The notes below the pieces were generated by a model, which saw nothing but the letters and a program-made list of their open reading frames with translations, did not search any database and was not told where the DNA came from. A stretch of 64,000 nucleotides of DNA, taken from an uncultured delta proteobacterium (GTDB lineage: Bacteria; Myxococcota_A; Polyangia; Polyangiales; Polyangiaceae). A program made the position numbers and the translations under genes. Location of the stretch: the NCBI GenBank assembly GCA_963850305.1, contig CAWKKR010000008.1:1120001-1184000 (forward strand), in the 5' to 3' direction. Position 1 is the stretch's first letter, and each line of letters starts with the position of its first letter. Below, in pieces: positions 8,300 to 31,495 of the stretch.

Positions 8300-8794
8300 T
8301 CAGATCGATAGTTCCAGGATCTCGACGTCGAGGAGGCGTCCGAATTTCTCGCCCACGGCGTGGAGCGTGCCGACGTCGCGGAAGCCGATGGAGCGATGGA
8401 GCGCGAGGCTCGGTGCGCTCTCGGAGGTGATGCGGGCGAGCAGCACGTGAAGGCCGTTCAGACGCGCCGTCTCGATGATCCGCACCAGCAAACCTCTCCC
8501 GATCCCCCGGCCCCGGAAATCACGGTGCACGTACGTCGAGGTTTCGGCAGTGCGGTCGTAGGCGCGGCGATCGGAGTATCGCGACAGGCTCGCCCAGCCG
8601 ACGACCTTGCCCGCTTCTTCGCACACGATCGCGGAGTAGCGCGGCTCGGCGTGCGCGTCGGCCCAGCGCTGTCTCCGCTCGGGTGTGCTCGGCTCGGTGT
8701 CGAACGTCGCGGTGCCGTGCAGCACTTCGTCGTCGTAGATCGCGAAGACGGACTCGAGATCGCGTGTGGGATCGAACGCGCGGTGGAGAGTCAC
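8300..8794 (-). CDS. GNAT N-acetyltransferase, phosphinothricin/methionine-sulfoximine (YncA/MddA) type
   Basis: AIY..EV..GTATFDTEP, TAETSTYV, RGRGIG, SLALHRSIGF, VGEKFGRLLDV; GTG start overlaps the tolB stop. Confidence 0.9.
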   Translation of the reverse strand: MTLHRAFDPTRDLESVFAIYDDEVLHGTATFDTEPSTPERRQRWADAHAEPRYSAIVCEEAGKVVGWASLSRYSDRRAYDRTAETSTYVHRDFRGRGIGRGLLVRIIETARLNGLHVLLARITSESAPSLALHRSIGFRDVGTLHAVGEKFGRLLDVEILELSI

Positions 8795-10197: not shown

Positions 10198-10203
10198 GTC
10201 GGC

Positions 10204-11016
10204 CTATTTGCACGAAGGGACGAAGAACGCGACGGAGATCGTCGTGCCGAGAACGTCGGGGTAGTCTGGAGGAGGGGGGGGCAGCTCGGAGCCGCCGCCG
10301 ACGATCCCGTCGAGCGTACTCTTGACGCGGCTATCGAAAATCTCGTTACCGCTCGGTTTCACGATCGAAAAGCCGGTGACGGTTCGCTCGCCCCCGATGT
10401 TCGCCGTGACCGACGCGCGCAGTTTCTTCAGGACGTCACACGGGATCTCGGTCGTCGGCCGCTTGAAGCGGGCGTTGAACCAGGACGAGATCTTGATGCG
10501 GTACTGACTGACGGCGAACGCCTTGAGCGGGTCCGTCTCCGTGCCTTCCTTGACGCCGTCCTGCGCGCCCTCCGTGGGCAGATTCGCCGGAGGCGTTTCC
10601 GCGGACTCGGTGGGCTTCGGCACCTCCTCGACCTTCTTCGCGACGGCGGCATCGGGCGGCGGCGGCTCGGCCGTCGGCTTCGCGAGCGGCGTGTCGGGGA
10701 TCTTTTCTTTGACGGCCTGGGCCTTCGGCGTGGGCGCACTCACCGCCTCGTACCGCTTGATGGGCGGCTTCTTCACCCACATATCGGGCAGCTTGGCGCG
10801 CATGCGCTTGCTCCCGAGCTTGAGGAGCGGCGGCATTTCGTCGAGGACGGGTTTGACCTCGATCGGAACGGGTTCCTTCGCGGCGTCGTCGACAGCGGTG
10901 ATGTGGGTCTGGCTCGTCGCCGTTTCGAACACGATGAACAGGCTGCCTTCGACGATGACCGCGAGCCCCGCGGCGAGCACGATCTCCGACGGTAAGAAGG
11001 CGCGGACCGCCGTCAT
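10204..11016 (-). CDS. TolA/TonB C-terminal-domain protein
   Basis: N-terminal TM, Pro/Lys-rich linker, KPSGNEIFDSRV...LPPPP; sits between tolR and tolB. Confidence 0.8.
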   Translation of the reverse strand: MTAVRAFLPSEIVLAAGLAVIVEGSLFIVFETATSQTHITAVDDAAKEPVPIEVKPVLDEMPPLLKLGSKRMRAKLPDMWVKKPPIKRYEAVSAPTPKAQAVKEKIPDTPLAKPTAEPPPPDAAVAKKVEEVPKPTESAETPPANLPTEGAQDGVKEGTETDPLKAFAVSQYRIKISSWFNARFKRPTTEIPCDVLKKLRASVTANIGGERTVTGFSIVKPSGNEIFDSRVKSTLDGIVGGGSELPPPPPDYPDVLGTTISVAFFVPSCK

Positions 11017-11468
11017 TTGGCCTTCGCGGTCACCTTGGCCGTCGGATCGTCGGGGATCTCCTCGAGCTCGGGTTGCACGAGGAGATTCAGGGACTTCACG
11101 CCCGCCGAGCGCGCCGCGGCGACGACCTTGGCGACCACGCCGTAGCGCGCGTCCTTGTCGGCGCGAATGTAGAGCTCGCTCTCGGTCTGAACGCGTTCGT
11201 TCGTCCGGAGTACGTCTTCGATCGTCTGGGTGACGTCTTTTTCGCCGAAGAGAATCCGCTCGTCCTTCGTGACGGTGACGAGCAGGCGGGCATCTTTCAC
11301 CGGCGTGCTCGCGGCTTTGACTTCGGGCAAATCGATGCGAAGGCCCGCCGTCAGGATCGGCGCGGTGACCATGAACACGATCACGAGGACGAGCATGACG
11401 TCCACGAGCGGCGTCACGTTGATGGTGGCGAAGCCGCCTCGACCGCGCCCGCGGAGCTCGCCCCCCAT
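11013..11468 (-). CDS. tolR: TolR/ExbD
   Basis: INVTPLVDVMLVLVIVFMVTAP; IRADKDARYG. Confidence 0.9.
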   Translation of the reverse strand: MGGELRGRGRGGFATINVTPLVDVMLVLVIVFMVTAPILTAGLRIDLPEVKAASTPVKDARLLVTVTKDERILFGEKDVTQTIEDVLRTNERVQTESELYIRADKDARYGVVAKVVAAARSAGVKSLNLLVQPELEEIPDDPTAKVTAKAK

Positions 11469-11470
11469 GG

Positions 11471-12187
11471 TCAGTAACCGGCGGCGCGCGGGTGATCCGA
11501 GCGGACCAGCGGGACCGCGGCCGTCGAACCGCCCGGGTCGGCCGCCATCGTCTCTACCCAGACCTCGCTCGACGAGGTGAGCTCAGCCAAGAAATCCCCG
11601 ATGCGCTTGTCGACGTAGTTGTAGCCAATGGTCGCGGGGATCGCGGCGACGAGGCCGAACGCGGTCGCGATGAGGGCTTCACCGATGGCCGGTGCCACGA
11701 CGGGCAGCGACGCGCTCTTCTCGAGCCCGATCCGCAAAAAGGCGTTCATGATGCCCCACACCGTCCCGAAGAGCCCGACGAACGGCGACGCGCTCGCGAT
11801 GCTGGCGAGCGTCGGCATGAGCCGCGACGCGCGCTGCTCCTCTTGAACGATCGCGCGGCGCGCGACGGCCTGGAGAAGTTCCGCGCTGAGGTTCCGCTGG
11901 TGATGCCGCTTCGCGAGCTCGATGACGACTCTGCCACCCGGCGACGCCTCGTGCTTCAGCGCGAGCGAGATGAGATCCTGGGCGTTCACTACGGCCTCGG
12001 CTTCGCGCTCGAAGTCCAGGTTGAGCGCGCGCAGGCGCAGCACCTGGAGCGTCTTCAGCAGCCAGATCAGCCAGACCGCGAAGGAGGCGATCATCAGCAG
12101 AAGCAGGACGACGCGCACGATCCCCGACGCGCTCGCCATGAGCGCCAATGGATCGATCTGAAGCGAGGTGCTGGGTGGGCCGTTCAC
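11471..12187 (-). CDS. tolQ: TolQ/ExbB proton channel
   Basis: LASIASASPFVGLFGTVWGIMNAF; VAPAIGEALIATAFGLVAAIPA. Confidence 0.92.
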   Translation of the reverse strand: MNGPPSTSLQIDPLALMASASGIVRVVLLLLMIASFAVWLIWLLKTLQVLRLRALNLDFEREAEAVVNAQDLISLALKHEASPGGRVVIELAKRHHQRNLSAELLQAVARRAIVQEEQRASRLMPTLASIASASPFVGLFGTVWGIMNAFLRIGLEKSASLPVVAPAIGEALIATAFGLVAAIPATIGYNYVDKRIGDFLAELTSSSEVWVETMAADPGGSTAAVPLVRSDHPRAAGY

Positions 12188-12220
12188 CGGATTTCCGTAT
12201 AGCCCGGATGGGCGCCGAGG

Positions 12221-12757
12221 TCAGGTCCCGAGCACGACATCCACGCGGCGATCCTTCGCCCAGCCCGCTTCATCCGTGCCGGTTGCGTCCATTGCTCCAC
12301 GGGACGTGGTAGCGGCCTGGCTCGCTGGGAGGCCCACGCCGACGAGGGCGCGCTTGACGTTGTCCGCGCGCTTCCCACCCAGGACCATGTTGTATTCCTC
12401 CTCGCCGCGAGGATCGGCGTGGCCGACGAGGTTCATGTTGCGGCCCTTGAGGGGGCCCGTCGTGAAGCACGCGGCCAGCTTGACGAGCACATTGTGAGCC
12501 GCGGCCTCGACGTGCGCCGAGTCGAAGGCGAAGTACGCCTCGGCATCGGTGATGCCGCAGGCGCGGCGGATCTCGTCGGAAATGTTGATCTGACTCTGAG
12601 TGGGGTTGTCGTCGGGCTTCTCGGGGGGTGCCGGCGTCGCCGCTACTGGCGGGGGCTCGGTGCCGCCCGAAGGCGCCACCGGCGGCGGCTTGGCCTCCGA
12701 ACCGCAAGCCGCGACGCTGAACGCAAGAACAACCCCAAGGTGCTTCATCATCGACAT
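12221..12757 (-). CDS. pal: Pal/OmpA-family peptidoglycan-associated lipoprotein
   Basis: Lipobox VAAC, YFAFDS, GHADPRGEEEYNMVLGGKRA, DRRVD. Confidence 0.85.
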   Translation of the reverse strand: MSMMKHLGVVLAFSVAACGSEAKPPPVAPSGGTEPPPVAATPAPPEKPDDNPTQSQINISDEIRRACGITDAEAYFAFDSAHVEAAAHNVLVKLAACFTTGPLKGRNMNLVGHADPRGEEEYNMVLGGKRADNVKRALVGVGLPASQAATTSRGAMDATGTDEAGWAKDRRVDVVLGT

Positions 12758-14364: not shown

Positions 14365-14671
14365 GTCGCTCTCACTTGGCCCGTTGCCGTGCCATTTGCC
14401 GCCCGGTCCGATGCAAGGGGTCCGGCTGCGGTTCTGCGGGGCTCTGTGCCCGCTTCCTCGAGATCGGGCCGCCGCGCGCTCCCGCGGTTGCCCCTCACCT
14501 TGCCCGTCCCGGCTCTGCCCCCGGCCGTCCGAGAGGCTCAACCGACACCGAAATCTGGCAAGTCGCGCGCCGAAAGCCGACCGCGCCTTTTGCGCATACC
14601 ACGGCGGCCGCCTTTCGACTTACCAAAAAAACCCCGGCCGTTTGGGGTTCTCGGGTACCTTCGAAACCTCC

Positions 14672-15592
14672 ATGGAGCACGGGCAGAGGTTCTGGCAGGA
14701 CGGGCAGGTCCTCGAGTGGGACGCCGCCGGAAAGGTCTCGCTCCTCACGCACACGCTGCACTACGGCCTGGGGGCATTCGAAGGAATTCGCGCGTATAGA
14801 CGGTCGCACGGCGAGAGCGTCATTTTCCGGCTGACCGAGCACGTGATCCGGTTATTCGAGTCCTGCCGCCTGGTCTTCATCACGCCGCGCGTCACTCGTG
14901 CGGAGCTGGAAGCAGGATGCGCAGCGGTTCTTCGCGAGAATGCACTCGCCGAGGCTTACATACGCCCGATCGTCTTTCTCGGCGAGGGATCGATGGGACT
15001 TCTGCCGAGGGACAATCCGGCAGTCACCGCAATCATGGCGTGGACCTGGGGCGCGTACCTCGGGGCGAAGGGGCTCGACGAAGGGATTCGGTGCAAGGTC
15101 TCGAGCTTCGCGCGCGGCGCGGTGAACGCCGGGCTCCCCCGCGGAAAGATCGTCGGGCAATACGTGAACTCGACGCTCGCGAAGCAGGAAGCGACGCTCG
15201 CAGGATACGACGAAGCGTTGCTCCTCGACGCGAGCGGCTACGTCAGCGAAGGTTCCGGGGAAAATATCTTCATCGTGCGGAACGGGAGGCTCGCGACGCC
15301 GCCCCTGTCGTCGTCGATCCTCGCAGGCATCACCCGCGACACGGTAATCACTCTTGCCAAAGAGGAGGGCCTGGTCGTCGTGGAAGAGCAGTTGACACGC
15401 GACGCGGTCTACCTGGCGGAAGAGGTTTTCTTGACGGGCACGGCGGCCGAGATCACGCCGGTGCGCGAGATCGACAATCGCGCAATCGGCGCCGGGACGG
15501 CAGGTCCGGTGACGAAAACGTTGCAGCGGCGTTACTTCGACATCGCGCGCGGCTCCGACGATTCGCATCCCGAGTGGCTCACCCGCGTATGA
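14672..15592 (+). CDS. ilvE: Branched-chain amino acid aminotransferase
   Basis: HTLHYGLGAFEGIRAY, YIRP, KIVGQYVNS, EGSGENIF, ILAGITRD, FLTGTAAEITP. Confidence 0.95.
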   Translation: MEHGQRFWQDGQVLEWDAAGKVSLLTHTLHYGLGAFEGIRAYRRSHGESVIFRLTEHVIRLFESCRLVFITPRVTRAELEAGCAAVLRENALAEAYIRPIVFLGEGSMGLLPRDNPAVTAIMAWTWGAYLGAKGLDEGIRCKVSSFARGAVNAGLPRGKIVGQYVNSTLAKQEATLAGYDEALLLDASGYVSEGSGENIFIVRNGRLATPPLSSSILAGITRDTVITLAKEEGLVVVEEQLTRDAVYLAEEVFLTGTAAEITPVREIDNRAIGAGTAGPVTKTLQRRYFDIARGSDDSHPEWLTRV

Positions 15593-16215: not shown

Positions 16216-16278
16216 CAGCTTCTGGCCCACCGGATGAACACGGGTGTCTCCTCGCCCTTTCTCGGGCACGGGCGCTGC

Positions 16279-17100
16279 TCAGAATCCGAGACCCACGACG
16301 CTGCGAATCCAGATCTTTCCGAAGCTGTCCCCCGAAAGTGGATCCAGGTCGTGATTCCAGTCGGTCAAGCGCACGTAGACCCCGTTCGTCCACCATAGCG
16401 CGCCAAACTGCAGCAAGAGAGCCGGGCCGAGGTATTGATGCGGTCCAAGCTCGAAGGGGCGCGGCGACGTCGCGTTCTCTTCCTGGTATTCGCCGTACAT
16501 CCACCACTCGATGCCGGGTTGTACGGACGGCGTCGCCTCGAAGGTGAGCCCCGCCGACGGGTTCAAGACGAGGTCGTGTCTTCCGTCGAAGTAGAACTCC
16601 TCTTCCGCGGTGGCGTTCGCGATGACGCGCATGATGCCGAAGCGCCGCTGCAAGATCGCCTTCGCCTCGAGCTCGATCTCGCGTTCGTTTTCGCTGACCT
16701 CGCCGTAGAGCGCGACGTCGATCGGCCAGGCGCCCGTGTCCGCGAGCTTGTACCGGAGACGCTGCTTCATGCCGTTGCCTTCGACGGCAAGCGGGACCTC
16801 CTCGAAATCGGACGGCGCCGCGGGCGCGTACGTGACGTAAAGCCCGAGTTCGAGACGATCGGTCAGCCCATGTTCGAACTCGGTTTGAAACTGAAGCAGG
16901 CCGTACGTGACGGTGCCCTGCGTCCCTGAAAGGGCATGGACCGGCGTGTAGTCGACGTATTGCTCGATCTCCGTCGAGCCCTCGCCCAGCTGCTCGTGCG
17001 GGTAAGAAAACGGTAAGGGCCGGGGATTTGCGAACGCCGATCTCGCGCATAGGGCGGCTGCCGCCGTCGCCATCGCCGCATTGAAAGCCAGTCGAGGCAC
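16279..17100 (-). CDS. Probable outer-membrane beta-barrel protein
   Basis: Signal peptide ending AFA, alternating beta-strand pattern, TEFEHGLTDRLELGLY, C-terminal Phe (VVGLGF). Confidence 0.75.
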   Translation of the reverse strand: MPRLAFNAAMATAAAALCARSAFANPRPLPFSYPHEQLGEGSTEIEQYVDYTPVHALSGTQGTVTYGLLQFQTEFEHGLTDRLELGLYVTYAPAAPSDFEEVPLAVEGNGMKQRLRYKLADTGAWPIDVALYGEVSENEREIELEAKAILQRRFGIMRVIANATAEEEFYFDGRHDLVLNPSAGLTFEATPSVQPGIEWWMYGEYQEENATSPRPFELGPHQYLGPALLLQFGALWWTNGVYVRLTDWNHDLDPLSGDSFGKIWIRSVVGLGF

Positions 17101-17130
17101 TTTCGGTTCCTTTGTTCGCGCGGGACCGTA

Positions 17131-17153
17131 TTGAAAATGAAATTCATTTGCAA
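17131..17153. promoter_or_regulatory. Fur-box-like palindrome
   Basis: ttgaaaatgaaattcatttgcaa; core 17133-17151 matches GATAATGATAATCATTATC at 14/19; AT-rich in a GC-rich context, 30 bp upstream of the beta-barrel gene. Confidence 0.7.
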
Positions 17154-17421
17154 CACCTTTCTCGAGCAGGGAACCGTCATCACGAGAGGCAGCCGGGAAT
17201 GCGGCCGCTGAATGCTAGGACCAGAAGCCGCTTGTCGAGTCATGCGCAGTACCCGTTCGGGTACCCCGAGACATACCTATGGGACCCACATATGGACGAC
17301 GGTCGATCGCAAGTGTGGGTCGGCGACTGATTCGCATGGTGGCGCGTGAGAAGAAGCGTCAGAAGAATTGTGGAACATGACTTTCGAAATCGGGTAAGGA
17401 CCTCCGAACGAGGGAGTCGAA

Positions 17422-17853
17422 ATGGCGACGGCGCGACCGAGCGACGGAGCGGCGACGGATGAAGCGCTTCACTGCGCCGACTCCGAGCGAGAAACACGTG
17501 CGAGCGGCTTTCAGAGGCGCTCGGCGACGCGCGAGGACCCACGGGCAGCATCGGAAGAGCCCACCTCGAAAACGAAGTGGACGGTCGTGCAGGCCTTCGT
17601 GCGCGGCGACTTTCACTATCAGTTGCGCCGTCGGCCGGCACATCATACCCAGCCGCGATTGACCCAACGCGAGGAGCAGGTGCTGGCTCTCGCCCGTGAT
17701 GGCCACTCGAACAAGAGCATTGCGTACGCGCTCGGCCTCTCCCCATCCACGGTGGGCGTGTTGTTGTTTCGCGCCGCCGCCAAGATGGGCGCAAGATCGC
17801 GACGCGAACTGCTCCTGGCGTACGCCCGGTCGAAGCAGTCAATCGGGCGCTAG
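17422..17853 (+). CDS. LuxR/GerE-type HTH transcriptional regulator with a short N-terminal region
   Basis: LTQREEQVLALARDGHSNKSIAYALGLSPSTV...KMGARSR. Confidence 0.88.
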   Translation: MATARPSDGAATDEALHCADSERETRASGFQRRSATREDPRAASEEPTSKTKWTVVQAFVRGDFHYQLRRRPAHHTQPRLTQREEQVLALARDGHSNKSIAYALGLSPSTVGVLLFRAAAKMGARSRRELLLAYARSKQSIGR

Positions 17854-18026
17854 TGCTGCGGCCGCTGGTCTCCATGCGCGTGAATCGCCGCGACCGACGG
17901 GGCCAACCGATGACCACCGGCGCAGGCGTTCGCAGTGGAGATCGGCAAAAGCCGGTCAAGTCCACTGCCGAATTTCGAGGAACTTTTCCGAGCGAGCACC
18001 GTCGAGGATCTGGCAAACCAAAGCGC

Positions 18027-18161
18027 ATTTACATCGCGGGTCGTAAACTTTCCATCGCGGGTCGTCGGCGTCGGACTCGACGTTTCTCCGTCGCTTCGCG
18101 AAACTCACGGAAGTGACCTTCGATGTGGCCGGATCACATATTTACGGGTCACCTCGTAAAC
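18027..18161. promoter_or_regulatory. Two copies of an inverted-repeat motif ATTTAC-N10-GTAAAC
   Basis: atttacatcgcgggtcgtaaac (18027-18048) and atttacgggtcacctcgtaaac (18140-18161). Confidence 0.5.
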
Positions 18162-18318
18162 GCGTAAAATCTTGCAAATGCAGCCGCGTTCGATGACTCT
18201 TCATCTCACAATAGAGATGTGGGCCGGTGGCGCAGACCACCGCAGGGGATTGCGCCGTCCCAATCCGAAGACTCAGGCGCAGAGGTTCGTGATCCTCGAT
18301 CGCGGGAGGAGATTCCCC

Positions 18319-19344
18319 TTGGAAGATGAGAGGCTTTCTGGTGTCGCACCGCCATCGGTGATTCCTCGCAGTGACGTTCCCATTTCATCGGCGCCCGGCG
18401 ATGCCGACATGGAGGTCCGACCGTTCGTCGCCCACGGGCTCCTGCGCGCCTCCGTTCCGGAGACGATCGGGCTTGCCTGGACCCACGCCAAACCAGGACG
18501 CGACGTCGCCTTGCGCTCGCATCCCATACCGGGGTTGCTCGTCATCCTGCAGGGACGGGCCGAGCTGACCGGGCGGACGCGACGCTTCGTCGAGCAAGGC
18601 GATGTGGTGACCTTACCGAGTCATCACGAGTACGGCTTCGCTTCAGTGGGTCATGCCGGTCTAACTGCGCTGCACGTGGCGTTCCGTAAGGACCCCGAAT
18701 ACCGGACCGACGAAATCCTCAGTCTCGAACATCTGCTCGCACGCAACGAAGTTCGGGCGCAGCTTTCCATCGAAGGTCCCGCCTTTCAACTGCTCAGAAA
18801 CGGCGCTCTCGATGGAGTGAGAAGTCGCGCCCGATTCATCGACTCGATCCGCGTCTTCTCCGACGCCTTTCAGACGATTCTGCTGACGCGTCAGGCAACT
18901 TGCTTCGACGAAGCATACATCCGGACGTTTCACGAACACTTCACCGAGGAGCTCGGACATAACGAGCTTCTCACCGTAACCGAAAATCGGAAGGCTCCGT
19001 CCGACCCAGTCCTTCGCGCGACCTCGCTATGGTTTTGCCACCAGATGCTGGTGCTCGACAACATCGGTAAAGCCGCCCTCGTGCACCTCGTGCTGGAGAC
19101 GGCCGGCCACTACTTTCATACCCTCGCCGAACCCGTTCTCTCCGCAGACGTGAACGCGGGTTACTTTCACGTCCACGCCGAAGCCGACGACGATCACAAG
19201 GACGTCGCCATCGAGTTGCTCGAAGGGCAGCACCCGCACACCTATAGACGCTTGCACCGGATCATCGAGGACGGCTGGGACGTTTTCGACACGATGATGG
19301 CGCGCGTCGCGCACCTGGTCGACCTCGAGACCTCGAGTTCCTGA
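18319..19344 (+). CDS. Cupin (degenerate) + heme-oxygenase-like diiron (HDO/TenA-PqqC fold) fusion protein
   Basis: TTG 18319 follows GGAGGAG; cupin-like GDVVTLP; HDO ligand motifs HFTEELGH, LVLETAG, YFHVHAEADDDH. Confidence 0.75.
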   Translation: MEDERLSGVAPPSVIPRSDVPISSAPGDADMEVRPFVAHGLLRASVPETIGLAWTHAKPGRDVALRSHPIPGLLVILQGRAELTGRTRRFVEQGDVVTLPSHHEYGFASVGHAGLTALHVAFRKDPEYRTDEILSLEHLLARNEVRAQLSIEGPAFQLLRNGALDGVRSRARFIDSIRVFSDAFQTILLTRQATCFDEAYIRTFHEHFTEELGHNELLTVTENRKAPSDPVLRATSLWFCHQMLVLDNIGKAALVHLVLETAGHYFHTLAEPVLSADVNAGYFHVHAEADDDHKDVAIELLEGQHPHTYRRLHRIIEDGWDVFDTMMARVAHLVDLETSSS

Positions 19345-19377
19345 CACGCGCCAGCGAACGGAGAAGAAGGTGAAGCC

Positions 19378-20394
19378 ATGGAAGGTCAAATTCAGGTCGT
19401 AAAGAGAGAGACGATCCCGCCGATTCGCTCGGTCGATCAGCAAGGACACGTCCACGGGTTGGGCGAGCTGCGGGATTTCCGGTGGAGCGCCGAGCTCCGA
19501 CAGTTCATGCCCGACGCGTCCGAGTTTTCGGTCAGCTGGGTGCGGCTCGAACACGAGGAAGTTCTTCATCCGCACACGCATCCCATTCAATCGATGCTCG
19601 TCGTTTACGCCGGCTCCGGACGCATGCTCGGCGACCTGTGCCAGCCCATCTCCGAAGGTGACGTGATTGTCGTCCCTCCGGGTCGGATGCACGGATTCGT
19701 CGGCGGCCTTGAAGGGCTTCATGCACTCTCCATCCAATTCGGCGAGGGTCTCTATACGACCCCCGAGAAACCGCGCGTCATCTTCACGGACGCCAACGGG
19801 TCCCTGAGTGCCCTCCTCCTCTACAGCGAAAAGCGGCAGCAAGAATTCTCCCGATCGTCACTCTTCGAAATGCTCGAGGATGGGACGCTCCGCCAACCGT
19901 CCAGGCGGGCGATGTTCGTCGAGTGCGTCCGAATCTGGGACGCCGAGAGGAACAAGCTGTTGATGTGCCGGCAGGCGACCACGATGGATCCGACCTACGA
20001 GCGGGCCTTCCTTGCCGATCTTCGGAGCAAGCTCGGTGACCGTGCAGACCTCGGCGAGGCCGTCGACGTGCGGGATGCGACCCTCCAGTCGCTCGCGAGC
20101 TGGTTCTCTTACCAAATGTACGTGCTCGACAACGTCGAGAAAGCAGCGCTGGTCCACCTCGTGGTGGAAAAGGCGGCCGCGGTACTGGATGAGGCCACCG
20201 AGCGCGCCCTCGGCGACGTGTCGTGTCGCCCCGCGTCTCGAAGCTCCTCGCCTAGTGACGGTCGTGACCTCGAGCTTCTCCGAAACGAGACCGACGCCAC
20301 CTACACGCGGCTCCGGCGCCTCGTGAGTGAAGCTTGGGACATGGTGTTCGCCTTGACGGAACGCATCGTCGACCGGACGCGTGCGGCGTACTGA
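19378..20394 (+). CDS. Cupin (intact His motifs) + degenerate HDO-like domain; paralog of the upstream gene
   Basis: HPHTHP...GDVIVVPPGRMHGF; shares RQAT, WF..QM.VLDN..KAALVHLV.E and TY.RL.R....WD with 18319..19344. Confidence 0.78.
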   Translation: MEGQIQVVKRETIPPIRSVDQQGHVHGLGELRDFRWSAELRQFMPDASEFSVSWVRLEHEEVLHPHTHPIQSMLVVYAGSGRMLGDLCQPISEGDVIVVPPGRMHGFVGGLEGLHALSIQFGEGLYTTPEKPRVIFTDANGSLSALLLYSEKRQQEFSRSSLFEMLEDGTLRQPSRRAMFVECVRIWDAERNKLLMCRQATTMDPTYERAFLADLRSKLGDRADLGEAVDVRDATLQSLASWFSYQMYVLDNVEKAALVHLVVEKAAAVLDEATERALGDVSCRPASRSSSPSDGRDLELLRNETDATYTRLRRLVSEAWDMVFALTERIVDRTRAAY

Positions 20395-20427
20395 AGGTCG
20401 GCGGTTTCCGACACGGAGTACCCCCAG

Positions 20428-22131
20428 ATGTCGTTTCGCGCGGATGAGTTCGAGCTCGATCGATATCCGTACGCGGCCCGACGCGTGCCCATCTTCGCGC
20501 CGCACGGCGCGGTCGCGACGAGCGAACCCCTTGCCGCACAAGCGGGGCTCCGCATCTTGCAGCGCGGCGGCAATGCCGTCGATGCCGCGGTCGCCACCGC
20601 CGCGACGCTGACCGTAGTCGAGCCGACTTGCAACGGGATCGGCGGCGATGCCCTTGCACTCGTCTGGGACGGCTCGGCGCTTCATGGGCTCAACGGGTCC
20701 GGACGCGCGCTCGCCGCACATACCCCTGAACTCTTCTCTAAGCTCGAGCTCGATCACGTGCCTCCGCACGGCTGGCTCCCGGTGACGGTTCCGGGCGTTC
20801 CCGCGTGCTGGAGGGATCTTCATCAGCGCTTCGGCAAGCTGCCGTTCGAGGCGCTGTTCGAGTCGGCCATCGAATACGCCACGGATGGCTTTTCCGTTGC
20901 GCCCGTCACGGCTCAGCGCTGGCGCGCGGCAGCCGCCATTCACGCCGCCCGGACCAGCGACGAGCCCGCAATCATGCCGTGGCGCGAAACGTTCACGCGA
21001 GACGGGCACGCGCCGCGTATCGGCGACAAGTGGTCGCTACCCGATCTCGCCTCGACCCTGAAGGAGCTCGCGGCGACCTCCTGCGAGTCCTTCTACCAAG
21101 GCAAGCTCGCAAACCAGATCCTGAACTTCGCGGATGCCACGGGAGGCTATCTGACGCGCCGCGACCTCGCGAACCATCGGAGCACCTGGGTGACGCCCAT
21201 CAGCGCCAACTACCGTGGCTACGACGTATGGGAAATGCCACCCAGCACTTCGGGGATCGCGGCCCTGACGGCTCTGAACATTCTCGAGGGCTTCGATCTG
21301 GCGCGCCATCCGCGTGAATCGATCGATAGCTACCATCTCCAGATCGAGGCGATCAAGATCGCCCTCGGGGATGCGTACGGTTACCTCGCCGATCCCGACG
21401 TGACGGCGGTGCCGTTTCAGGTCCGTCTCGACAAGAGATACGCGGCGGAACAGCGACGGCATATCGGCGACAGGGCGCTGTCATCACCCCCGAGGGATCC
21501 CCCGCGAGGGGGAACCGTGTTTCTGACCGTCGCGGACGCCGACGGCATGATGGTCTCCTTCATTCAGTCGAACTACACCGGGTGGTTGCTCGGATTTGGT
21601 TCCGGCGTGGTGGTACCGAAGACGGGGATCGCGCTGCACAGCCGCGGCTGTGGCTTCACGCTGGACCCGCGTCACCCGAACGTGATCGCCCCGGGCAAAC
21701 GACCGTTTCACACACTGGCACCGTCATTTCTCACGCGGGACGGGAACGCCATTGGACCTTTCGGGATCATGGGCGGACCGATGCAGCCGCAGGGACACGT
21801 ACAGTTCATCGTGAACCAGATCGACCACGGGATGAATCCGCAGGCATGCGTCGACGCGCCCCGGTTCCAGTGGATCAGCGGGAACGTCGTCGAAGTGGAG
21901 CTCGGCGTGCGCCCCGAGTTGGTGCAGGGCCTGGTCGTCCGCGGACACGACGTCCGACCGTGCGTCGATTTCGCCGCGATTCCCCCGCGGCTCAGCGGCC
22001 CCTTCCTAGGAAGCGGGGGCATGGCGAGCAGCGGGGACTTCGGCAAGGCGCAGATCATCCGGCGTCTCGGGAACGGCACGTACGTCGCGGCAAGCGATTG
22101 GCGCTCCGACGGTTGCGCCGTCGGTTATTGA
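20428..22131 (+). CDS. ggt: Gamma-glutamyltransferase family protein (YwrD-like, no signal peptide)
   Basis: GGNAVDAAVA, VVEPTCNGIGGD, VTVPG, nucleophile Thr in GGTVFLTVAD, KRPFHTL, MGGPMQPQGH, SDWRSDG. Confidence 0.93.
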   Translation: MSFRADEFELDRYPYAARRVPIFAPHGAVATSEPLAAQAGLRILQRGGNAVDAAVATAATLTVVEPTCNGIGGDALALVWDGSALHGLNGSGRALAAHTPELFSKLELDHVPPHGWLPVTVPGVPACWRDLHQRFGKLPFEALFESAIEYATDGFSVAPVTAQRWRAAAAIHAARTSDEPAIMPWRETFTRDGHAPRIGDKWSLPDLASTLKELAATSCESFYQGKLANQILNFADATGGYLTRRDLANHRSTWVTPISANYRGYDVWEMPPSTSGIAALTALNILEGFDLARHPRESIDSYHLQIEAIKIALGDAYGYLADPDVTAVPFQVRLDKRYAAEQRRHIGDRALSSPPRDPPRGGTVFLTVADADGMMVSFIQSNYTGWLLGFGSGVVVPKTGIALHSRGCGFTLDPRHPNVIAPGKRPFHTLAPSFLTRDGNAIGPFGIMGGPMQPQGHVQFIVNQIDHGMNPQACVDAPRFQWISGNVVEVELGVRPELVQGLVVRGHDVRPCVDFAAIPPRLSGPFLGSGGMASSGDFGKAQIIRRLGNGTYVAASDWRSDGCAVGY

Positions 22132-22203
22132 CGCGACTCGCGACGTCGCATCGAGACGGAGCTCCCGTAGCCGTCTGCGACGGCCCCTCGGGCGCATTCG
22201 CGG

Positions 22204-22779
22204 TCAGCTCTTCCAGATGATCTCGAACGCCGCTTCGTCGGTGCTGGGCTTCTCGAGCGACCATCCCGTGACGGTCGTACGCTCGAGGGATTTTCCCATC
22301 GTCTGAAGAGCAAACGTCACGAAGCCGGTCGCGGTGCATGCGGCGTGGTCGAACCCGCTGGTGCCGAGCACCTGGCAGACGAGCTTCGTGTCCGTAACAT
22401 CGACGATCAGCTTCCCGCGATTGCAGTCGCGACTCCATAGGTCCGGGACCTTCTTTGCGAAGAGCGCGGGCGTCAGCATCTTCATCAACAATCTGAGGAA
22501 TGTGTTCGTCGCCTCTCGCGCCATGCTCGCGCCGCATCCGATCAGAAGATCCCTGGCGCGGTCCTGGTCGCCGCCAGCCAGTGTTGCAATTGCCGCGGTT
22601 ACCTCGGACATGGCCGAGACCGGCGCCCACGCGCCTGCCTTCCCGCCCACGACTACCTCGCGCGTCTGCGGTGCAAACGCATCGACGATGCGCTGCCCCT
22701 CGGAACCTGCCAGCTCACGGAGATAGTCCACCGAGGCCAGCACCATGTATCCGCGCACCTGAAACTGCTCTTGAGCCAT
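22204..22779 (-). CDS. Hypothetical protein resembling myxobacterial DUF2378/V4R-like proteins
   Basis: VRG...W.PV..M...G..MA...TFLRLLMKMLTP......PDLWSR pattern; terminal W. Confidence 0.6.
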   Translation of the reverse strand: MAQEQFQVRGYMVLASVDYLRELAGSEGQRIVDAFAPQTREVVVGGKAGAWAPVSAMSEVTAAIATLAGGDQDRARDLLIGCGASMAREATNTFLRLLMKMLTPALFAKKVPDLWSRDCNRGKLIVDVTDTKLVCQVLGTSGFDHAACTATGFVTFALQTMGKSLERTTVTGWSLEKPSTDEAAFEIIWKS

Positions 22780-23368
22780 GATTTCGTCCTGTTCTAGAAA
22801 CGCCACGCGCTGCAGGATCGCATCGCGCACTCTCCCCGATTGATGCCCCGAGCCCCGGAGCCCAGCTGCAATCCTGCTCCTGGACCAGTCATGAGTGACG
22901 ACTCGGAACCGACTCTTCGACGGTAACTTTACAGCTAACCGAACGCCGTCGGATCCGTCAATACGGATGCGTCGACGGCAGCCACGTTTGGTCGGCAGGA
23001 GTACGACGATGTCCGTCGCGCTTCTTCATTCTGTGAGGGCATCGACGCACTCCGCGCGCTCCTTTTCACGACAGCGCTTGGCTTCGAAACGCGCATCGAA
23101 AAACCTTGCTGTCACGAAAACACAACTTCGATCCGTGTAGGTCATGACTAACGCGTCCCAGTCGGAACCAAGAGAGGGCCACAATTGGTACCTCCGCCTT
23201 CCCGTCGTGTGCCCACGGTGCCCACGCTCACGAAGCGAGTCCCCAGCGAAACATGGACCTATACAGAAAGAGAGCGATCCGTTAGGTTGAAAGGCCCTGA
23301 TGAGTCCCGTGCGGTCGTATCGGGCGCGCCTGGGCGCGGAATGACCGAAAGCGCGCTGAGCAGACCAA

Positions 23369-24001
23369 ATGGAGGCCGTGTTCGAGAAGGCGCTAGCTGT
23401 CCTCGTGCAGCATATTTCCCCGGTAAACGCCCGATCCTTGTTGCTGCGCGCACTCCACGAGCAGCGCCTTACACCGCGGGATCTGACGAAGCAGGACCTG
23501 AGCAAGTGCAGCGTCGCACTCCGTCGGGGCGTCGCCCTTTTCGTGGAACCAGAACGCCGCCAGGCGGCGCTGCGGACAATCGCCGACCTGTGCGGGGAGG
23601 ATCCGACTGCGCTCGATCCATGCCTCCTTCAGATCACCACCGAGTCCGACATCGGGAAGGCTCGAGCGGAAGCGCGGCGGATCTGCGATGCGATCGGTGC
23701 CTCGCCGTTCGTGATGCAGAAGATCGCGACCATCATGAGCGAGCTAGCGCGCAACATGGTGCTCTATGCCGGCGGGGGCGTGGTCGAAATGATCGCGATG
23801 AACACCGGACAGCGGCGTGTGCTCATCCGTGCAACGGATCGCGGCAGGGGCATTCCGAATCTCGAGGAGGTCATGTCGGGCAAATACAAGAGCAAGACGG
23901 GCATGGGGCGTGGCTTGCTCGGGTCGAAGCGTCTGGCCGATCGGTTCGACGTCTCCACGGGAACGGCGGGCACGCGCGTATCGTTGGAGGTCTTCTTATG
24001 A
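23369..24001 (+). CDS. rsbT: RsbT-type serine kinase (GHKL) with an N-terminal helical extension
   Basis: IATIMSELARNMVLYAGGG, DRGRGI, GMGRGLLGSKRLADRFDV, GTRV. Confidence 0.88.
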   Translation: MEAVFEKALAVLVQHISPVNARSLLLRALHEQRLTPRDLTKQDLSKCSVALRRGVALFVEPERRQAALRTIADLCGEDPTALDPCLLQITTESDIGKARAEARRICDAIGASPFVMQKIATIMSELARNMVLYAGGGVVEMIAMNTGQRRVLIRATDRGRGIPNLEEVMSGKYKSKTGMGRGLLGSKRLADRFDVSTGTAGTRVSLEVFL

Positions 24002-24564
24002 AGTTCCGCGTGGCCCATTCATCGTCGCCGATGGTCGGAGAAACCGCGAACGGCGACAGGGCCGTCTTCCGGACGGACGAAGAGGACCGCACGCTCATCG
24101 CGGTTATCGACGCTCTGGGACACGGGCCCGGCGCAGCAGTCGTCGCCGACGCCGCTGCGGAGTGTTTGGCTCAGATCTCTCTGGAGTCGACGATGCTCGA
24201 CGTCGTCCAGACGCTGCACGCGAAACTCGCCGGATCGCGCGGGGCCGCCGGGACCCTGTGCCTCTTTCGCGAGCGAAACGTCGAGGCGTGCGCCGTCGGG
24301 AACGTGGAGCTGCGATGTGCAGATCTCCGGCTGCCGCTCGTGTTCTCGGCCGGAGTTCTCGGCGCGAGAGTGGCGAAGTTCCATGTGTGCCGCGCCGTCA
24401 TACCCGGGCGCGCGCGCTGCGTTCTATTTTCGGACGGGATCTCGTTGCGAGTACCGCTCGAGGACGTGCGGGGGCTTCCACCAGACGAGGCATGCAACGT
24501 CATCCTCACGAAGTATCGGCGAAAAGAAGACGATTCAACGGTCCTCGTGGCTGACATGGAGTGA
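23998..24564 (+). CDS. rsbX: RsbX-type PP2C/SpoIIE phosphatase
   Basis: GETANGD, AVIDALGHG, SRGAA, VGNV, FSDGI, DDSTV; ATG overlaps the rsbT stop. Confidence 0.85.
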   Translation: MKFRVAHSSSPMVGETANGDRAVFRTDEEDRTLIAVIDALGHGPGAAVVADAAAECLAQISLESTMLDVVQTLHAKLAGSRGAAGTLCLFRERNVEACAVGNVELRCADLRLPLVFSAGVLGARVAKFHVCRAVIPGRARCVLFSDGISLRVPLEDVRGLPPDEACNVILTKYRRKEDDSTVLVADME

Positions 24565-24570
24565 GCTTCA

Positions 24571-25023
24571 ATGGACGACGGCTATCATCGGATACCAATC
24601 ATCGAGTTCTGGGATCTCCTTCTGGTCCCGCTCCAGGGCGACATGACGGACGACATGGCGAGCCGCCTGGTGTCGGAGGTCCTCGATCGGATCCATCGGA
24701 GCGGAGCTTCCGGTCTGATGATCGACATCACGGGCCTGTGGCTCGTGGACAGCCATCTGTGCGCCGTGCTCTCCCAGCTCGCCGCTGCAGCGTCGCTGAT
24801 GGGAGCGCGCACGCTGATCTCCGGAATGAAACCCGAGATAGCCATGGCTCTCGAAACGATGGGAATCAAGCTGGCGAACGTGACGACGACGCTCGATCTC
24901 GAAACGGCGCTCGGGCTTCTCGGCGTGGGTCGACCGAATCTCGACGTCACCCGGCTCGACGCGCTCGATCTCGCCGAATCAGGGGCGGGCGCAAATTCCT
25001 TCCCCGCGGAGGCTTCCAAGTGA
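24571..25023 (+). CDS. rsbS: RsbS-type STAS antagonist
   Basis: IPII...LLVPLQGDMTDD, IDITGLWLVDS (phosphorylated Ser position), ASLMGA...GMKPEIAMAL. Confidence 0.88.
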   Translation: MDDGYHRIPIIEFWDLLLVPLQGDMTDDMASRLVSEVLDRIHRSGASGLMIDITGLWLVDSHLCAVLSQLAAAASLMGARTLISGMKPEIAMALETMGIKLANVTTTLDLETALGLLGVGRPNLDVTRLDALDLAESGAGANSFPAEASK

Positions 25024-25691
25024 AGAGCGGAGATTCCCCGGACGTCGAAGCCGAGCTGGTCCACTCGGTCGGCGCGCTTTTGTCCGTGGTTGCGGCGGTC
25101 GGCAGGGGCGACCTTTCGCAGAGGCTCGAGGTTCACTATCCGGATTCGCACCCGGTCGGCGCTCTCGTTCAGAGCGTCAACTACATGGTCGACGCGCTGG
25201 CGGAGGCGCGTTCCACTTCGGCCGCGTCTCTCGCCCAGCTGAGTGATCGCATCGCGACGATCGAACACCAGCGTGAGGCCATTCGTAACTTGACGGTCCC
25301 CGTCATCGAGATCTGGGCGGGCGTGCTCTGCGCGCCGGTCGTCGGAGTGCTCGACAGCGTGCGCGCAGCGGACGTCACCCAGACGCTCCTGCAAGCCGTG
25401 GTCGAAATGAAGGCGCAACACGTGATCATCGACGTCACCGGCGTCGAAGTGATGGACACTCAATCGGCTGATCATTTTCTCCGCATCGCACGTGCCGTGA
25501 TGTTGCTCGGCGCTCGGTGCGCGCTCTCGGGGATGCATCCGAACATTGCCCGTACCATCGTCCACATGGGCGTGGATCTTCAGGGCCTCAAGAGCTACCG
25601 GAACATGCGAGACGCGCTCCGACACTGCGTCCACGACGTTCGTGCACGCCGCGCTGGACGCACACCTGGTGGAGCTTCCAGGGCCCCGTGA
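25020..25691 (+). CDS. rsbR: RsbR-type protein (HAMP-like + coiled coil + STAS)
   Basis: IRNLTVPVIEIW, PVVGVLDSVRA, IDVTGVEVMDT; N-terminal GDLSQRL...VGALVQSVNYMVDAL. Confidence 0.85.
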   Translation: MKSGDSPDVEAELVHSVGALLSVVAAVGRGDLSQRLEVHYPDSHPVGALVQSVNYMVDALAEARSTSAASLAQLSDRIATIEHQREAIRNLTVPVIEIWAGVLCAPVVGVLDSVRAADVTQTLLQAVVEMKAQHVIIDVTGVEVMDTQSADHFLRIARAVMLLGARCALSGMHPNIARTIVHMGVDLQGLKSYRNMRDALRHCVHDVRARRAGRTPGGASRAP

Positions 25692-25752
25692 TGCCCCGGA
25701 AGGACCCCCAAACCGCTCGAGAAAGGTCCGAAGAATCGTGAGCTCCGCGACG

Positions 25753-26361
25753 ATGTCCGAAGACGAGATCCTGGAAGCAGTGGCTGACGCTTTGTTGACG
25801 CTCGCGAACGTCGGGTATGGGGACTACTCGACTCGCCTGACGATCGACCCGAACGACACTGGCCCGTTGACGACCCTTTACATCGGCATCAACGAGATGA
25901 TCGCGTCGCTCAGCATCGAACAAGACAAGAGTCGAGCCTATCAGGCCGAGCTCGAGGAGAAATTAGCGACGATCGAGAAACAGCGAGAAACGATCCGTGA
26001 ACTGTCCACGCCGATCATGGAGGTCTGGGACGGCGTGCTCTGCCTCCCGGTGGTCGGAATCATGGATACCGTCCGCAGCGCGGAGATGACGACGTCGCTA
26101 CTTCAAGCGGTGGTCGAGAAGAAGACGAGGTGCACTATCATCGATATCACGGGCATCGACGTCATGGACACGCGGACGGTCGATCACTTCATGCGTATGG
26201 CGCGTGCCGTTCGGCTCCTCGGAGCGGATTGCGTTCTGACTGGGATCAACCCGCACATCGCACAGACGGTCGTGCACATGGGGATCGACCTCACGAACGT
26301 CGTCACTCACCGGACCCTCCACGAGGCGTTGCAGCAGTACGTGGAGCGGAGCTCCCGCTGA
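25753..26361 (+). CDS. rsbR: Second RsbR-type protein (HAMP-like + coiled coil + STAS)
   Basis: IRELSTPIMEVWDGVLCLPVVGIMDTVRS, IDITGIDVMDT, RLLGA...TGINPHIAQT; start may be GTG 25738. Confidence 0.88.
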   Translation: MSEDEILEAVADALLTLANVGYGDYSTRLTIDPNDTGPLTTLYIGINEMIASLSIEQDKSRAYQAELEEKLATIEKQRETIRELSTPIMEVWDGVLCLPVVGIMDTVRSAEMTTSLLQAVVEKKTRCTIIDITGIDVMDTRTVDHFMRMARAVRLLGADCVLTGINPHIAQTVVHMGIDLTNVVTHRTLHEALQQYVERSSR

Positions 26362-26368
26362 CATCGGA

Positions 26369-26818
26369 ATGCCGCACTGCGACGTCCGTGACTGGGTAGA
26401 CGTCTTTCACGTGCAGCGCACCGTCGCGGGCTTCGCGCGCGATGTCGGGTTTTCGAGGCTCGAGAGCAACGAACTGGCGATCGTCGGATCCGAGCTCACC
26501 TCGAATATCTTGAAGTACGGAGTCGTGGGTGCGGTGGACGTGGAGCCGTACGTGGACACTCGGGGTGGGGGACTGACTCTCATCGCGACGGACCGCGGCC
26601 CTCCATTTCACAATCTCGACGCCGCGCTGCAAGACGGCTGTGACGATCGGGGTCCGATCGATCCGCTCCAGATGCTGACACGGCGAGGGATCGGAGGGGG
26701 CCTCGGGGCCGTGCTGCGCCTGTCACATTCTTTCCGCGTCGAGCCTCACCCTGGGGGTAAGAGAGTTCACGTGATTCGCTACCTCTCATCGGTCAAACCC
26801 ACGCGCGGCTCCCCGTGA
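26369..26818 (+). CDS. Second RsbT-like GHKL kinase / anti-sigma regulatory factor
   Basis: ELAIVGSELTSNILKYG, DRGPPF, GIGGGLGAVLRLSHSF. Confidence 0.8.
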   Translation: MPHCDVRDWVDVFHVQRTVAGFARDVGFSRLESNELAIVGSELTSNILKYGVVGAVDVEPYVDTRGGGLTLIATDRGPPFHNLDAALQDGCDDRGPIDPLQMLTRRGIGGGLGAVLRLSHSFRVEPHPGGKRVHVIRYLSSVKPTRGSP

Positions 26819-27567
26819 CCCTGTTCGGCCATGCGCTACTTGTCGTTTCCGGAGGCGTCGCGGGCGCACTGAATTCCGTGGCTGGCGGGGGAAGCTTTCT
26901 GACCTTTCCTTCGCTCGTGTGCGTCGGCGTCCCGCCGGTCATCGCGAATGCGACAAGCGCGGTGGCACTCTGGCCCGCCCAGCTCGCGAGCACCGTCGCG
27001 TACCGGCGTGAGCTCGCAGGAGTTCGACGCTGGATCCTCGCGCTGGCCATCGTCAGCGCCGCGGGAGGCTTCACGGGCGCGCTCCTGCTGCTTCACACGT
27101 CGAATGCCATTTTTTCGCGGGTCATCCCGTATCTGCTGCTCGGGGCGTCGCTGCTCTTCACTTTCGGAAAGCGGTTCACGACGAGTCCGCCGGGCAGTGT
27201 AGGAGGGCTGCGGCGCGCCGTCGTCGCTCAGGCACTCGTCGCGATCTACGGAGGGTATTTCGGGGGCGGGATGGGAATCGTCATGCTCGCGCTGTTCTCG
27301 ACGCTCGGCATGACCAACATCCACGCGATGAACGCGCTGAAGACGATGTTGGCCGCCCTGATCAACCTCGTGGCCATCTCGACGTTCATCGCGGCGGGCG
27401 CGGTGGCGTGGCGCCCTGGAATCGTGATGGTCACGGCCGCCACCCTCGGCGGCTATTTCGGCGCGGCCGGCGCGCGGCACATTCGTCCAGCCCTCATCCG
27501 CCGCTTCGTCCTGATCGCTGCGTGGTCGATGACCGCCTACTTCTTCTTCAGAGCTTACGCGAGATGA
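26815..27567 (+). CDS. TauE/SafE (TSUP) family permease
   Basis: AGALNSVAGGGSFLTFP, ANATS, YGGYFGGGMGI, NALK. Confidence 0.9.
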   Translation: MTLFGHALLVVSGGVAGALNSVAGGGSFLTFPSLVCVGVPPVIANATSAVALWPAQLASTVAYRRELAGVRRWILALAIVSAAGGFTGALLLLHTSNAIFSRVIPYLLLGASLLFTFGKRFTTSPPGSVGGLRRAVVAQALVAIYGGYFGGGMGIVMLALFSTLGMTNIHAMNALKTMLAALINLVAISTFIAAGAVAWRPGIVMVTAATLGGYFGAAGARHIRPALIRRFVLIAAWSMTAYFFFRAYAR

Positions 27568-27606
27568 GCCAGGCGAGCCGAACGCCGGGCGACACTGCGA
27601 CTCGCG

Positions 27607-30787: not shown

Positions 30788-31228
30788 TCAGGTGTCCTGA
30801 TCCGCATCCGCTGTCTTGTTCGCCGCGAGCATCAGTTTGAGCTCTTCCACGAGACTTCCTGCGTCCACGCTCTTTTCGAAGGCGACCTCGTACCACGTGT
30901 CCAGCGTGCGCGGCCCGCCACCCGGATCCCTGACGACGACGACGGATGTCTCCACTTCGCGATAGCCACGTGGCCCCGCGAGGACCGCAACTTTGCGGGC
31001 GCGGCCGAAGAGATCGTCCGGTGTCTCGCCGGGAAATTGGCTCGCCTGAGCGCGTGTCACGAAGCGGACGGCTGGTGGATCCGACGCCACGGCACAAACA
31101 TCCCCGTCCATGATGAGGTTCTCCCTGACGCGATCCGCAAGGTGAACCCTGTCTCCTTGGACACGAAAAATCTCCAGACCTGCCGCAATGAGCTGCTTCT
31201 TGAGCTCGGTGGGGGTGGCGCTCGGCAT
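30788..31228 (-). CDS. Hypothetical protein
   Basis: 146-aa ORF with protein-like composition (LADRVRENLIMD, LDTWYEV). Confidence 0.75.
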   Translation of the reverse strand: MPSATPTELKKQLIAAGLEIFRVQGDRVHLADRVRENLIMDGDVCAVASDPPAVRFVTRAQASQFPGETPDDLFGRARKVAVLAGPRGYREVETSVVVVRDPGGGPRTLDTWYEVAFEKSVDAGSLVEELKLMLAANKTADADQDT

Positions 31229-31495
31229 TTACCTCATTCTGGCTAAACGGCAGGGTTGGGCTCGGGTTCGCGGCGGAGGTTCCGACGGGGAAACCGCGGC
31301 CCTGGAACGGCGGCGTCCGAGACCTTCTCAGAGCAAAAAAACCCCGTCAAGGACGTCGGCGCGCCGCTCACGGCGAAAAGCTCGGCAAAAGTCCTCCTCG
31401 GCAGACCGCCGATTCGCGGGCGAGGTGACGCGCCCGCGGCCGGAGCCCTCCTAATTCGCGGGGTGGACGCCAAAGTAGTGCTAGGTTTAGGCGCC

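Follow-up and report, generated by a model that had tools for sequence, protein, structure and literature searches.

Tandem cupin–diiron oxidase paralogs in a Polyangiaceae island: a conserved, modular pair and a candidate tryptophan-oxidising system

About a dozen heme-oxygenase-like diiron oxidases (HDOs) have been functionally validated, and those studied need no protein partner, as far as the cited account goes (PMC13108848). AetD, a nitrile synthase, and SktA, a skatole synthase, are HDOs described in the cited sections as acting on halotryptophan (PMC10654658, PMC11869266). In SznF/StzF of the streptozotocin pathway, an HDO and a three-histidine cupin share one polypeptide that forms a dimer, according to the portions cited (PMC11705231, PMC13108848), and the chalkophomycin system ChmM/ChmN is presented in the cited text as including a didomain protein whose HDO has no ligands, whose cupin is intact, and which is complemented in trans (10.1101/2024.01.24.577118). 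The subject here is a pair of adjacent genes, for proteins A and B, that unites an HDO and a cupin in another way. It lies in a 64,000-nucleotide stretch of an uncultured delta proteobacterium of the Polyangiaceae (the window; assembly GCA_963850305.1, contig CAWKKR010000008.1, positions 1,120,001 to 1,184,000, forward strand). With a probability of roughly 0.55, and by reasoning from models and analogy, we propose that A and B form a cupin-to-cupin heterodimer that would oxidise L-tryptophan, whose product the B cupin and a gamma-glutamyltransferase (GGT)-like hydrolase would finish into a small indole signal for neighbouring regulators. The A/B system itself is real, conserved and uncharacterised; an earlier note on this DNA had likewise not recognised it as a characterised one, and searches of an open-access library turned up no description of the family.

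Protein A (18319..19344, + strand, 341 amino acids) and protein B (19378..20394, + strand, 338 amino acids) are cupin-plus-HDO paralogs that align end to end (309 columns, 30% of them identical; E 5e-37); the start codon of A is a TTG, 9 nt downstream of GGAGG. The earlier note had described the two as mirror images in their metal sites, and the residues bear it out. A, the predicted catalytic diiron subunit, keeps all six ligands of a 3-His/3-carboxylate site (E211, H214, E260, H286, D290, H293), while in its cupin (residues ~11–124) the barrel fold is retained and the HxH...H triad is gone, replaced by R66-S-H68 and Y105. B, the predicted partner or cupin subunit, has the triad (H66, H68, H105, plus Q71) followed by an HDO-fold domain in which K218 and D221 occupy the first two ligand positions, E264 alone remains of six, and the H-x3-D-x2-H motif is missing, with short deletions at that site relative to the intact homolog P0123. 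AlphaFold models of both (mean predicted local distance difference test score, pLDDT, 94.6 for A and 90.8 for B) consist of a beta-barrel and a helical bundle, the cupin being N-terminal in each, so that the domain order is indeed reversed relative to SznF. The heme-oxygenase-like fold that the note expected of the C-terminal domains is recovered in both models: A matches CADD (Z 17.9, root-mean-square deviation 2.6, 191 aligned), AetD (Z 17.8, 3.2, 204), HrmI (Z 17.6), and HamA and UndA (Z 17.4), and B matches AetD (Z 16.0, 3.3, 189). TM1459-type cupins are fold matches of both N-terminal domains (for B, Foldseek E 2.6e-7). Given this fold and a spacing identical to that of AetD, the ligands of A probably cluster; D182 and E210 are conserved and would be candidates for a fourth carboxylate as in the 3H/4C site of SznF. 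Judged by fold and ligand set, A is an HDO, predicted to bind two irons and to activate O2. Neither protein belongs to the SznF family. A phmmer search of the PDB with A returned weak cupin matches only, and NCBIfam holds no family for either protein, the top match, mandelonitrile lyase, being a lead only, with 21.8 bits where the cut-off is 140.

Searches with A and with B each listed 120 proteins, the query counted, and hence 119 homologs. A mixed profile gave 237 representatives at E ≤1e-30, of which the best 150 were examined, 124 of them new, and ligand states were scored on a single hidden Markov model alignment. The A family is close to uniform: 113 homologs are cupin-dead and HDO-intact, three are HDO-intact with an unscorable cupin, two are short of one ligand and one is unscorable, which puts the full HDO ligand set in 116/119 and an intact cupin in 0/119. 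Among scorable homologs, R66 is found in 102 and Y105 in 112. The B homologs are mixed, with both sites in 45, the cupin only in 47, neither in 21 and the HDO only in two, the HDO being unscorable in the remaining four. Proteins with both sites intact, the kind of ancestor that the earlier note's duplication called for, make up 64/124 new representatives (among the best 150 of 237). On a FastTree phylogeny of 373 rows they fall outside the duplication that gave rise to A and B, and the loss of the cupin site maps near the base of A. The A cupin site was, to judge from these sequences, lost once and early. The family is patchy, being present in 36/383 genomes of the window's taxonomic family (distant single-gene forms counted) and in 8/401 of the class sample, and not found in the six congeners searched (0/6); a scan of genome contigs with one protein alone gave one locus.

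Several relatives depart from the pair arrangement. A single-copy form with a dead cupin and an intact HDO, found throughout one genus (many complete genomes; L064–L078, L093) beside a malate/lactate dehydrogenase gene, represents an independent cupin-site loss. Relatives of ~505–525 amino acids (P0256, P0259, P0263, P0288) place two intact tandem cupins ahead of the HDO domain. Both-intact B-like genes in L087, L088 and L089 lie with an ATP-grasp amino-acid ligase, a class I/II aminotransferase, an O-methyltransferase and an exporter, in candidate peptide natural-product clusters. P0296 looks like an A–B join but probably owes this to a frameshift artefact, and it was not counted.

The earlier note interpreted the mirror image as a partition of two activities after duplication, to be conserved among homologous pairs. 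Duplication from a both-intact ancestor stands; reciprocal loss as a conserved design does not, given the 45 B homologs with both sites and the 21 with neither. On an IQ-TREE tree of A proteins, each labelled by the state of its B partner, the B HDO state changes at least nine times (60 rows, 31 of them matched to a partner solely through contigs of equal length), or seven times when pairs seen in loci alone count, some of the branches being weakly supported. Two HDO losses are nested in clades starred on the tree (L025/L081 among L017/L018; L080 beside P0055/P0063), and forcing the 15 partners of HDO-dead B proteins together on the A tree is rejected (approximately unbiased test, p-AU 4.6e-44, LG+G4). 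Because these partners do not form one clade, the loss of B's diiron site was late and repeated. A single clade of HDO-dead B proteins on the FastTree phylogeny (support 0.77) is contradicted by the A tree and is likely a product of long-branch attraction. An additional series of losses lies inside B–halogenase fusions, where P0368 has three ligands gone although it is 91% identical to the intact L032. The pair is modular, and mirror-image loss is an end state that it has reached repeatedly and not one partition event, and the reciprocal split, on the sequences compared, is one of several states and not the family rule.

The genes that accompany the pair were tabulated by hand at the 37 loci showing a B gene. 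Wherever B is fully intact, a class-IV aminotransferase is present (13/13 loci); it is present also in L016, where B is truncated, and two further loci are cut upstream. Cupin-only B occurs in 12 loci, eight of them with a GGT homolog and three truncated, the last being L039, where a separate cupin-less HDO sits next to an aminotransferase. Eight of the nine loci with a doubly dead B are without aminotransferase and GGT (L028 with a GGT remnant), and the ninth is truncated. The combination of one HDO, one cupin and GGT is found in three layouts: as a single gene (L092), as the reciprocal pair of the window, and as separate single-domain genes (L094, L095). Conserved pocket positions differ between A and intact B, FSDAFQ against WVDGNQ, a sequence difference which suggests that the ancestral pair carried out two different HDO steps.

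Some of these loci are unusual in their own right. The low-GC (guanine-plus-cytosine) segment L039:1293-10019 holds A, the cupin-only B and a tryptophan halogenase facing the cupin-less HDO and aminotransferase, together with acyl-CoA ligase-like and FadL-type porin-like genes as read from sequence. The L015 cassette has a second HDO-like gene (L015:5601-6326), another pseudo-HDO: compared with a homolog in L112, its ligands are degraded (E to D, H to S). In L084:3050-6551, B is split across two reading frames with all ligands there, and the open reading frame upstream matches a flavin reductase in one part and a halogenase in another; L083 has a comparable join, of a flavin reductase match to one for an aromatic hydroxylase.

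An A:B heterodimer is plausible, and we lean toward it on the strength of modelling. The predicted complex scores 0.79 against 0.00 for the best of three controls; the mark for this score is reached by 116/157 solved complexes and 2/215 mismatched pairs. At least 64% of contacts recur between model runs, with a partner pLDDT of at least 77. In the modelled interface the cupins exchange strands, and the RQAT and QM.VLDN segments that A and B share add further contacts. Strand-exchange dimers of this kind are common among cupins. The dead cupin of A is better conserved at the interface than elsewhere (0.68 across 43 columns, against 0.48 across 82), interface residues are clade-specific (L77 in 82% of A, Y77 in 88–100% of B), and one sequence, P0242, is an A–B fusion, seen at the protein level only. 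The obligate heterodimer that the earlier note thought possible goes further than this, since there are also A-type HDOs with no cupin, and loci in which HDO and cupin are encoded by separate genes. An unlikely arrangement is that A and B are separate homodimers in one pathway, the HDO and cupin steps being joined only via a diffusible intermediate. The HDO-only and cupin-only genes flanking GGT in L094 and L095 fit it, as do the symmetric type of the modelled interface and both-intact single genes that must self-pair, such as that of G724 (complete, one full-length match); but it leaves unexplained the clade-specific residues, the fusion, and the doubly dead B proteins that are kept beside A.

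Selection bears directly on the last point. In one clade of doubly dead B, six pairwise comparisons give ratios of nonsynonymous to synonymous rates (dN/dS) of 0.11–0.25 for the cupin and 0.17–0.33 for the HDO domain, beside 0.06–0.18 for the HDO domain of A; these are rough Nei–Gojobori values with dS near 1, and two A rows with L034 were left out because L034 A is a fragment. By this estimate, doubly dead B is under purifying selection. The B cupin of the window gives 0.09–0.21, a range that sits badly with another unlikely account, less probable still than separate homodimers. By this account A does all the chemistry, B either serves as a structural chaperone or is a paralog in slow decay, and the cupin histidines of the window's B are a remnant. 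The doubly dead homologs (21/119), the loss of three ligands in P0368 and relaxation of the window's dead HDO domain speak for it. Against it, the B cupin histidines are present in 8/8 A/B-type loci with GGT and gone in the eight scorable loci that lack both GGT and the aminotransferase, L028 with its remnant included.

The substrate is probably tryptophan, to argue from the loci of relatives. A PrnA/RebH/Thal-like halogenase (E 4e-224) with a flavin reductase lies near the pair in 11 related loci, and a halogenase is fused to B in four sequences (L032, P0368–P0370). Other neighbours include bacterial tryptophan prenyltransferases, aromatic amino-acid hydroxylases, a TsrM-like methylase (a TIGR04428 match at E 3e-80 that stays under the cut-off), and a P450 with O-methyltransferases downstream. 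AetD is the sole significant PDB match of a broad HDO-domain profile (E 5e-10); its ligands (D76/H79/E140/H172/E176/H179) have the spacing of those in A, an ETAG-x2/3-FH segment is common to the two, and the AetD indole clamp F44, as given in the cited section (PMC10654658), aligns with F180 of A, conserved in 108/114. Two further readings of the chemistry can be set against this neighbourhood. It is quite improbable that a different amino acid or a gamma-glutamyl amide takes the place of tryptophan as substrate, or that the block degrades or detects an external compound: aminotransferases of the ilvE type and GGT handle nitrogen in general, the window is without tryptophan-tailoring genes, and outgroup single genes adjoin ATP-grasp ligases or lactate dehydrogenase-like genes, but four different indole- or aromatic-directed tailoring enzymes and the halogenase fusion accompany the A/B clade, which would be unexpected for a catabolic block. 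Least probable is a split SznF, in which A N-hydroxylates a guanidine or amine and the B cupin rearranges the product to an N–N bond (N-nitroso or diazeniumdiolate), possibly releasing nitric oxide for an H-NOX-like sensor. The pairing of an HDO with a three-histidine cupin, the trans complementation known from the cited part of the ChmM/ChmN work, and a neighbour with weak H-NOX/V4R likeness agree with it, whereas SznF comes at places 37 and 46-plus among the fold matches (Z 12.2 for A) and falls outside B's top 50, no arginine methyltransferase, nonribosomal peptide synthetase (NRPS) or YqcI/YcgG gene was recognised among annotated neighbours, and the tailoring genes are tryptophan-directed. 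The neighbours lend no backing to the earlier note's SznF analogy, with its N–N bond, and favour tryptophan and chemistry of the AetD/SktA type. A similar cassette without the cupin–HDO pair occurs in G560 (C1:4128000-4147999; L112:8572-14818), where a different HDO (50% identical to the 242-residue L015 protein) accompanies a 466-residue gene product, a TsrM-like methylase (73–79% to that of L015), and V4R-like and RsbR-like genes.

The pair sits in an island of ~11 kb (approximately 16220..27600; GC 0.605 at 18–20 kb) that is an insertion relative to congeners: the flanking ilvE and M16 peptidase genes lie 658–705 bp apart in 4/5 congeners and 12 kb apart here, and no terminal repeats are evident at the island ends. 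Directly after B comes a GGT-family N-terminal nucleophile hydrolase (20428..22131, + strand), closest in the PDB to 2NLZ (E 2e-169) and far from E. coli-type GGT and from HpxW, so that an identity as the oxamate amidohydrolase HpxW (E 1e-30) is not supported. The nearby ilvE (14627–15589) was rejected as the cassette aminotransferase, as it is 39–46% identical to cassette copies that share 49–58% with one another, and is present in congeners without the island. Upstream of A, a 143-residue LuxR/GerE-type helix-turn-helix (HTH) protein (17422..17853, + strand; PF00196, E 8e-14) has homologs in L015, L017, L022, L081, L083 and L085. Inside the island, a 273-residue protein (16279..17100, − strand) begins like a signal peptide and matches nothing in Pfam or NCBIfam, and a TauE/SafE-family exporter (26815..27567, − strand) forms its right end. 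Outside it, a Tol–Pal-like set (TolB, TonB-C, ExbD, TolQ, Pal) is read from sequence at window positions 8791–12757 on the minus strand.

A putative operator precedes A. A motif search over 17 upstream regions found the palindrome TTTAC-N10-GTAAA with a score of 91.5, compared with 56–66 in three shuffles; its exact form occurs twice in the 6,256,352 bases of the genome (18028..18047 and 18141..18160), both times upstream of A, and a copy with one mismatch lies outside the island at 31228–31247 of the window. In 553,837 bases of related high-GC loci, all 23 of 23 exact palindromes (spacer 9–11) are intergenic, and each precedes either the cassette or the STAS operon that goes with it. Five are in four loci outside the motif-finding set, and spacers of 8 or 12 give zero copies there. 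The TAC-N10-GTA core, which we take to resemble NarL-family 7-2-7 sites, fits the adjacent HTH protein as the likely binder. A sigma-70 scan gave one site against 1.0 expected, and no RNA holder came up.

Beyond the hydrolase, a 208-residue myxobacterial protein (22204..22830, − strand) that recurs beside the pair is weakly DUF2378/V4R/H-NOX-like (Atlas 0.92 to clusters with DUF2378 at 13% and V4R at 32%) and is a candidate ligand-binding sensor; an alignment of the V4R-like proteins found no match in the PDB. It is followed by a stressosome-type gene set that is present, by domain content, as one operon on the plus strand: an RsbT-like anti-sigma-type kinase (23369..24001), an RsbX/SpoIIE-like phosphatase (23998..24564), an RsbS-like STAS protein (24571..25023), RsbR-like HAMP-STAS (25020..25691) and STAS (25756..26361) proteins, and a second RsbT-like kinase (26369..26818), the Rsb names being labels that we presume to apply. 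Rsb and V4R-like genes recur next to the pair in related loci. In the low-GC locus L037, a PAS-containing, GGDEF-like gene, as read from sequence, comes after the pair.

From the folds, ligand states, gene order, island and palindrome, all of them observed, a working mechanism can be proposed. A would bind the amine and carboxylate of tryptophan at Fe1 as AetD does, activate O2, and cleave or N-oxidise the side chain. By analogy, our tentative first choice is that the side chain is cleaved, giving a C3 nitrile or aldehyde, with formation of an oxime or nitro group as a more doubtful second; the nitro-indole labindoles of a myxobacterium, in the cited part of their description (PMC6017429), were considered as a product class only and are tied to no locus here. 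The three-histidine cupin of B, of the TM1459/hydroxynitrile-lyase-type fold, would then convert the product of A, and the hydrolase would cut an amide. The V4R-like protein and the Rsb/STAS module would sense the compound, and the LuxR-type protein would control the operon via the palindrome; a signal role for the product is about an even bet. Historically, A would have lost its cupin metal site promptly after the duplication, the barrel being retained as a dimer face, and the ancestral B would have had a second, differently shaped diiron site working with the class-IV aminotransferase; lineages without that aminotransferase, the window's included, are without the B diiron site as well.

A number of observations weigh against this proposal. 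The gene-content contrasts all run in one direction, but they come from kin loci and amount to three and two independent contrasts on starred branches (sign test p 0.25 and 0.5). The A:B score of 0.79 may reflect mere likeness to solved structures, because the modelled interface is a common cupin dimer type and the comparison comprises A:B and three controls. The dead HDO domain of the window's B is relaxed (dN/dS ~0.55–0.58), cupin-less A-type HDOs occur alone (L038, L082, L090, L091, L097), and G514 (91% complete) has an A with no B found there. As for the substrate, the AetD match drops to E 0.21 once four distant HDOs leave the profile, and CADD, HrmI, HamA and UndA tie with AetD in the fold search. 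The window genome is without a close halogenase, prenyltransferase or TsrM homolog, so that tryptophan is carried over there from relatives and the product would derive from plain tryptophan. The palindrome was not seen in L024, L028, L043, L080 or L096, and the sensor role of the 208-residue protein rests on sub-threshold Pfam matches.

What the family brings to HDOs is an architecture with the cupin at the N-terminus and, as is likely, a heterodimer of paralogs that contain pseudo-domains; its natural variants, with both sites, one or none, fused or split, are ready-made controls for assigning each site. Since the window cassette is minimal, with three enzymes, a laboratory host would allow a direct test of what it makes. 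If its product is indeed a signal, the island would be a circuit of Polyangia that both makes and senses its own compound and has a defined operator. More speculatively, and on balance doubtfully, one might extend this to a widespread indole-signal system of myxobacteria and some low-GC bacteria, in which the paralog heterodimer would serve as a modular scaffold. Different lineages would have inactivated different ones among its four metal sites as partner enzymes were gained and lost, yielding halogenated, prenylated, methylated or plain tryptophan-derived signals read by the V4R-like/Rsb partner-switching circuit and by a LuxR-type regulator with its own operator.

Among described systems, AetD and SktA resemble A in HDO fold, in ligand spacing (H-x3-acid-x2-H twice) and in the ETAG..FH segment, and their clusters, with a tryptophan halogenase and a flavin monooxygenase, resemble the loci of relatives; as described in the cited sections, they differ in being single-domain proteins, ~15% identical, with no cupin, paralog pair or Rsb module (PMC10654658, PMC11869266). 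SznF, on the cited accounts, differs from A/B in running from an N-terminal domain through the HDO to a C-terminal cupin, in its E215-x9-H225 spacing, and in acting on methyl-arginine as a homodimer with both sites; it also has a fourth carboxylate (PMC11705231, PMC13108848). ChmM/ChmN, whose didomain member is so like B, depart from the pair, in the text cited, in that the partner is an unrelated heme enzyme and not a dead-cupin paralog, the domain order is that of SznF, and the substrate is arginine (10.1101/2024.01.24.577118). HamA/HamB of fragin and valdiazen, in the portions cited, likewise provide an HDO and a cupin, each from its own gene, and the signal made by their cluster induces its own production (PMC11659414, PMC11705231); but the system needs an NRPS and an AurF-type N-oxygenase, its product is valine-derived, and the two genes are not paralogs (PMC11659414). 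In Streptomyces, SCO7467/SCO7468 use a flavin monooxygenase instead of an HDO and adjoin a conservon instead of an Rsb/STAS module; as the cited passages describe them, they offer the same plan of interchangeable tryptophan-tailoring enzymes beside a multi-gene signalling cassette, with indole aldoxime or nitrile as products (PMC3617294).

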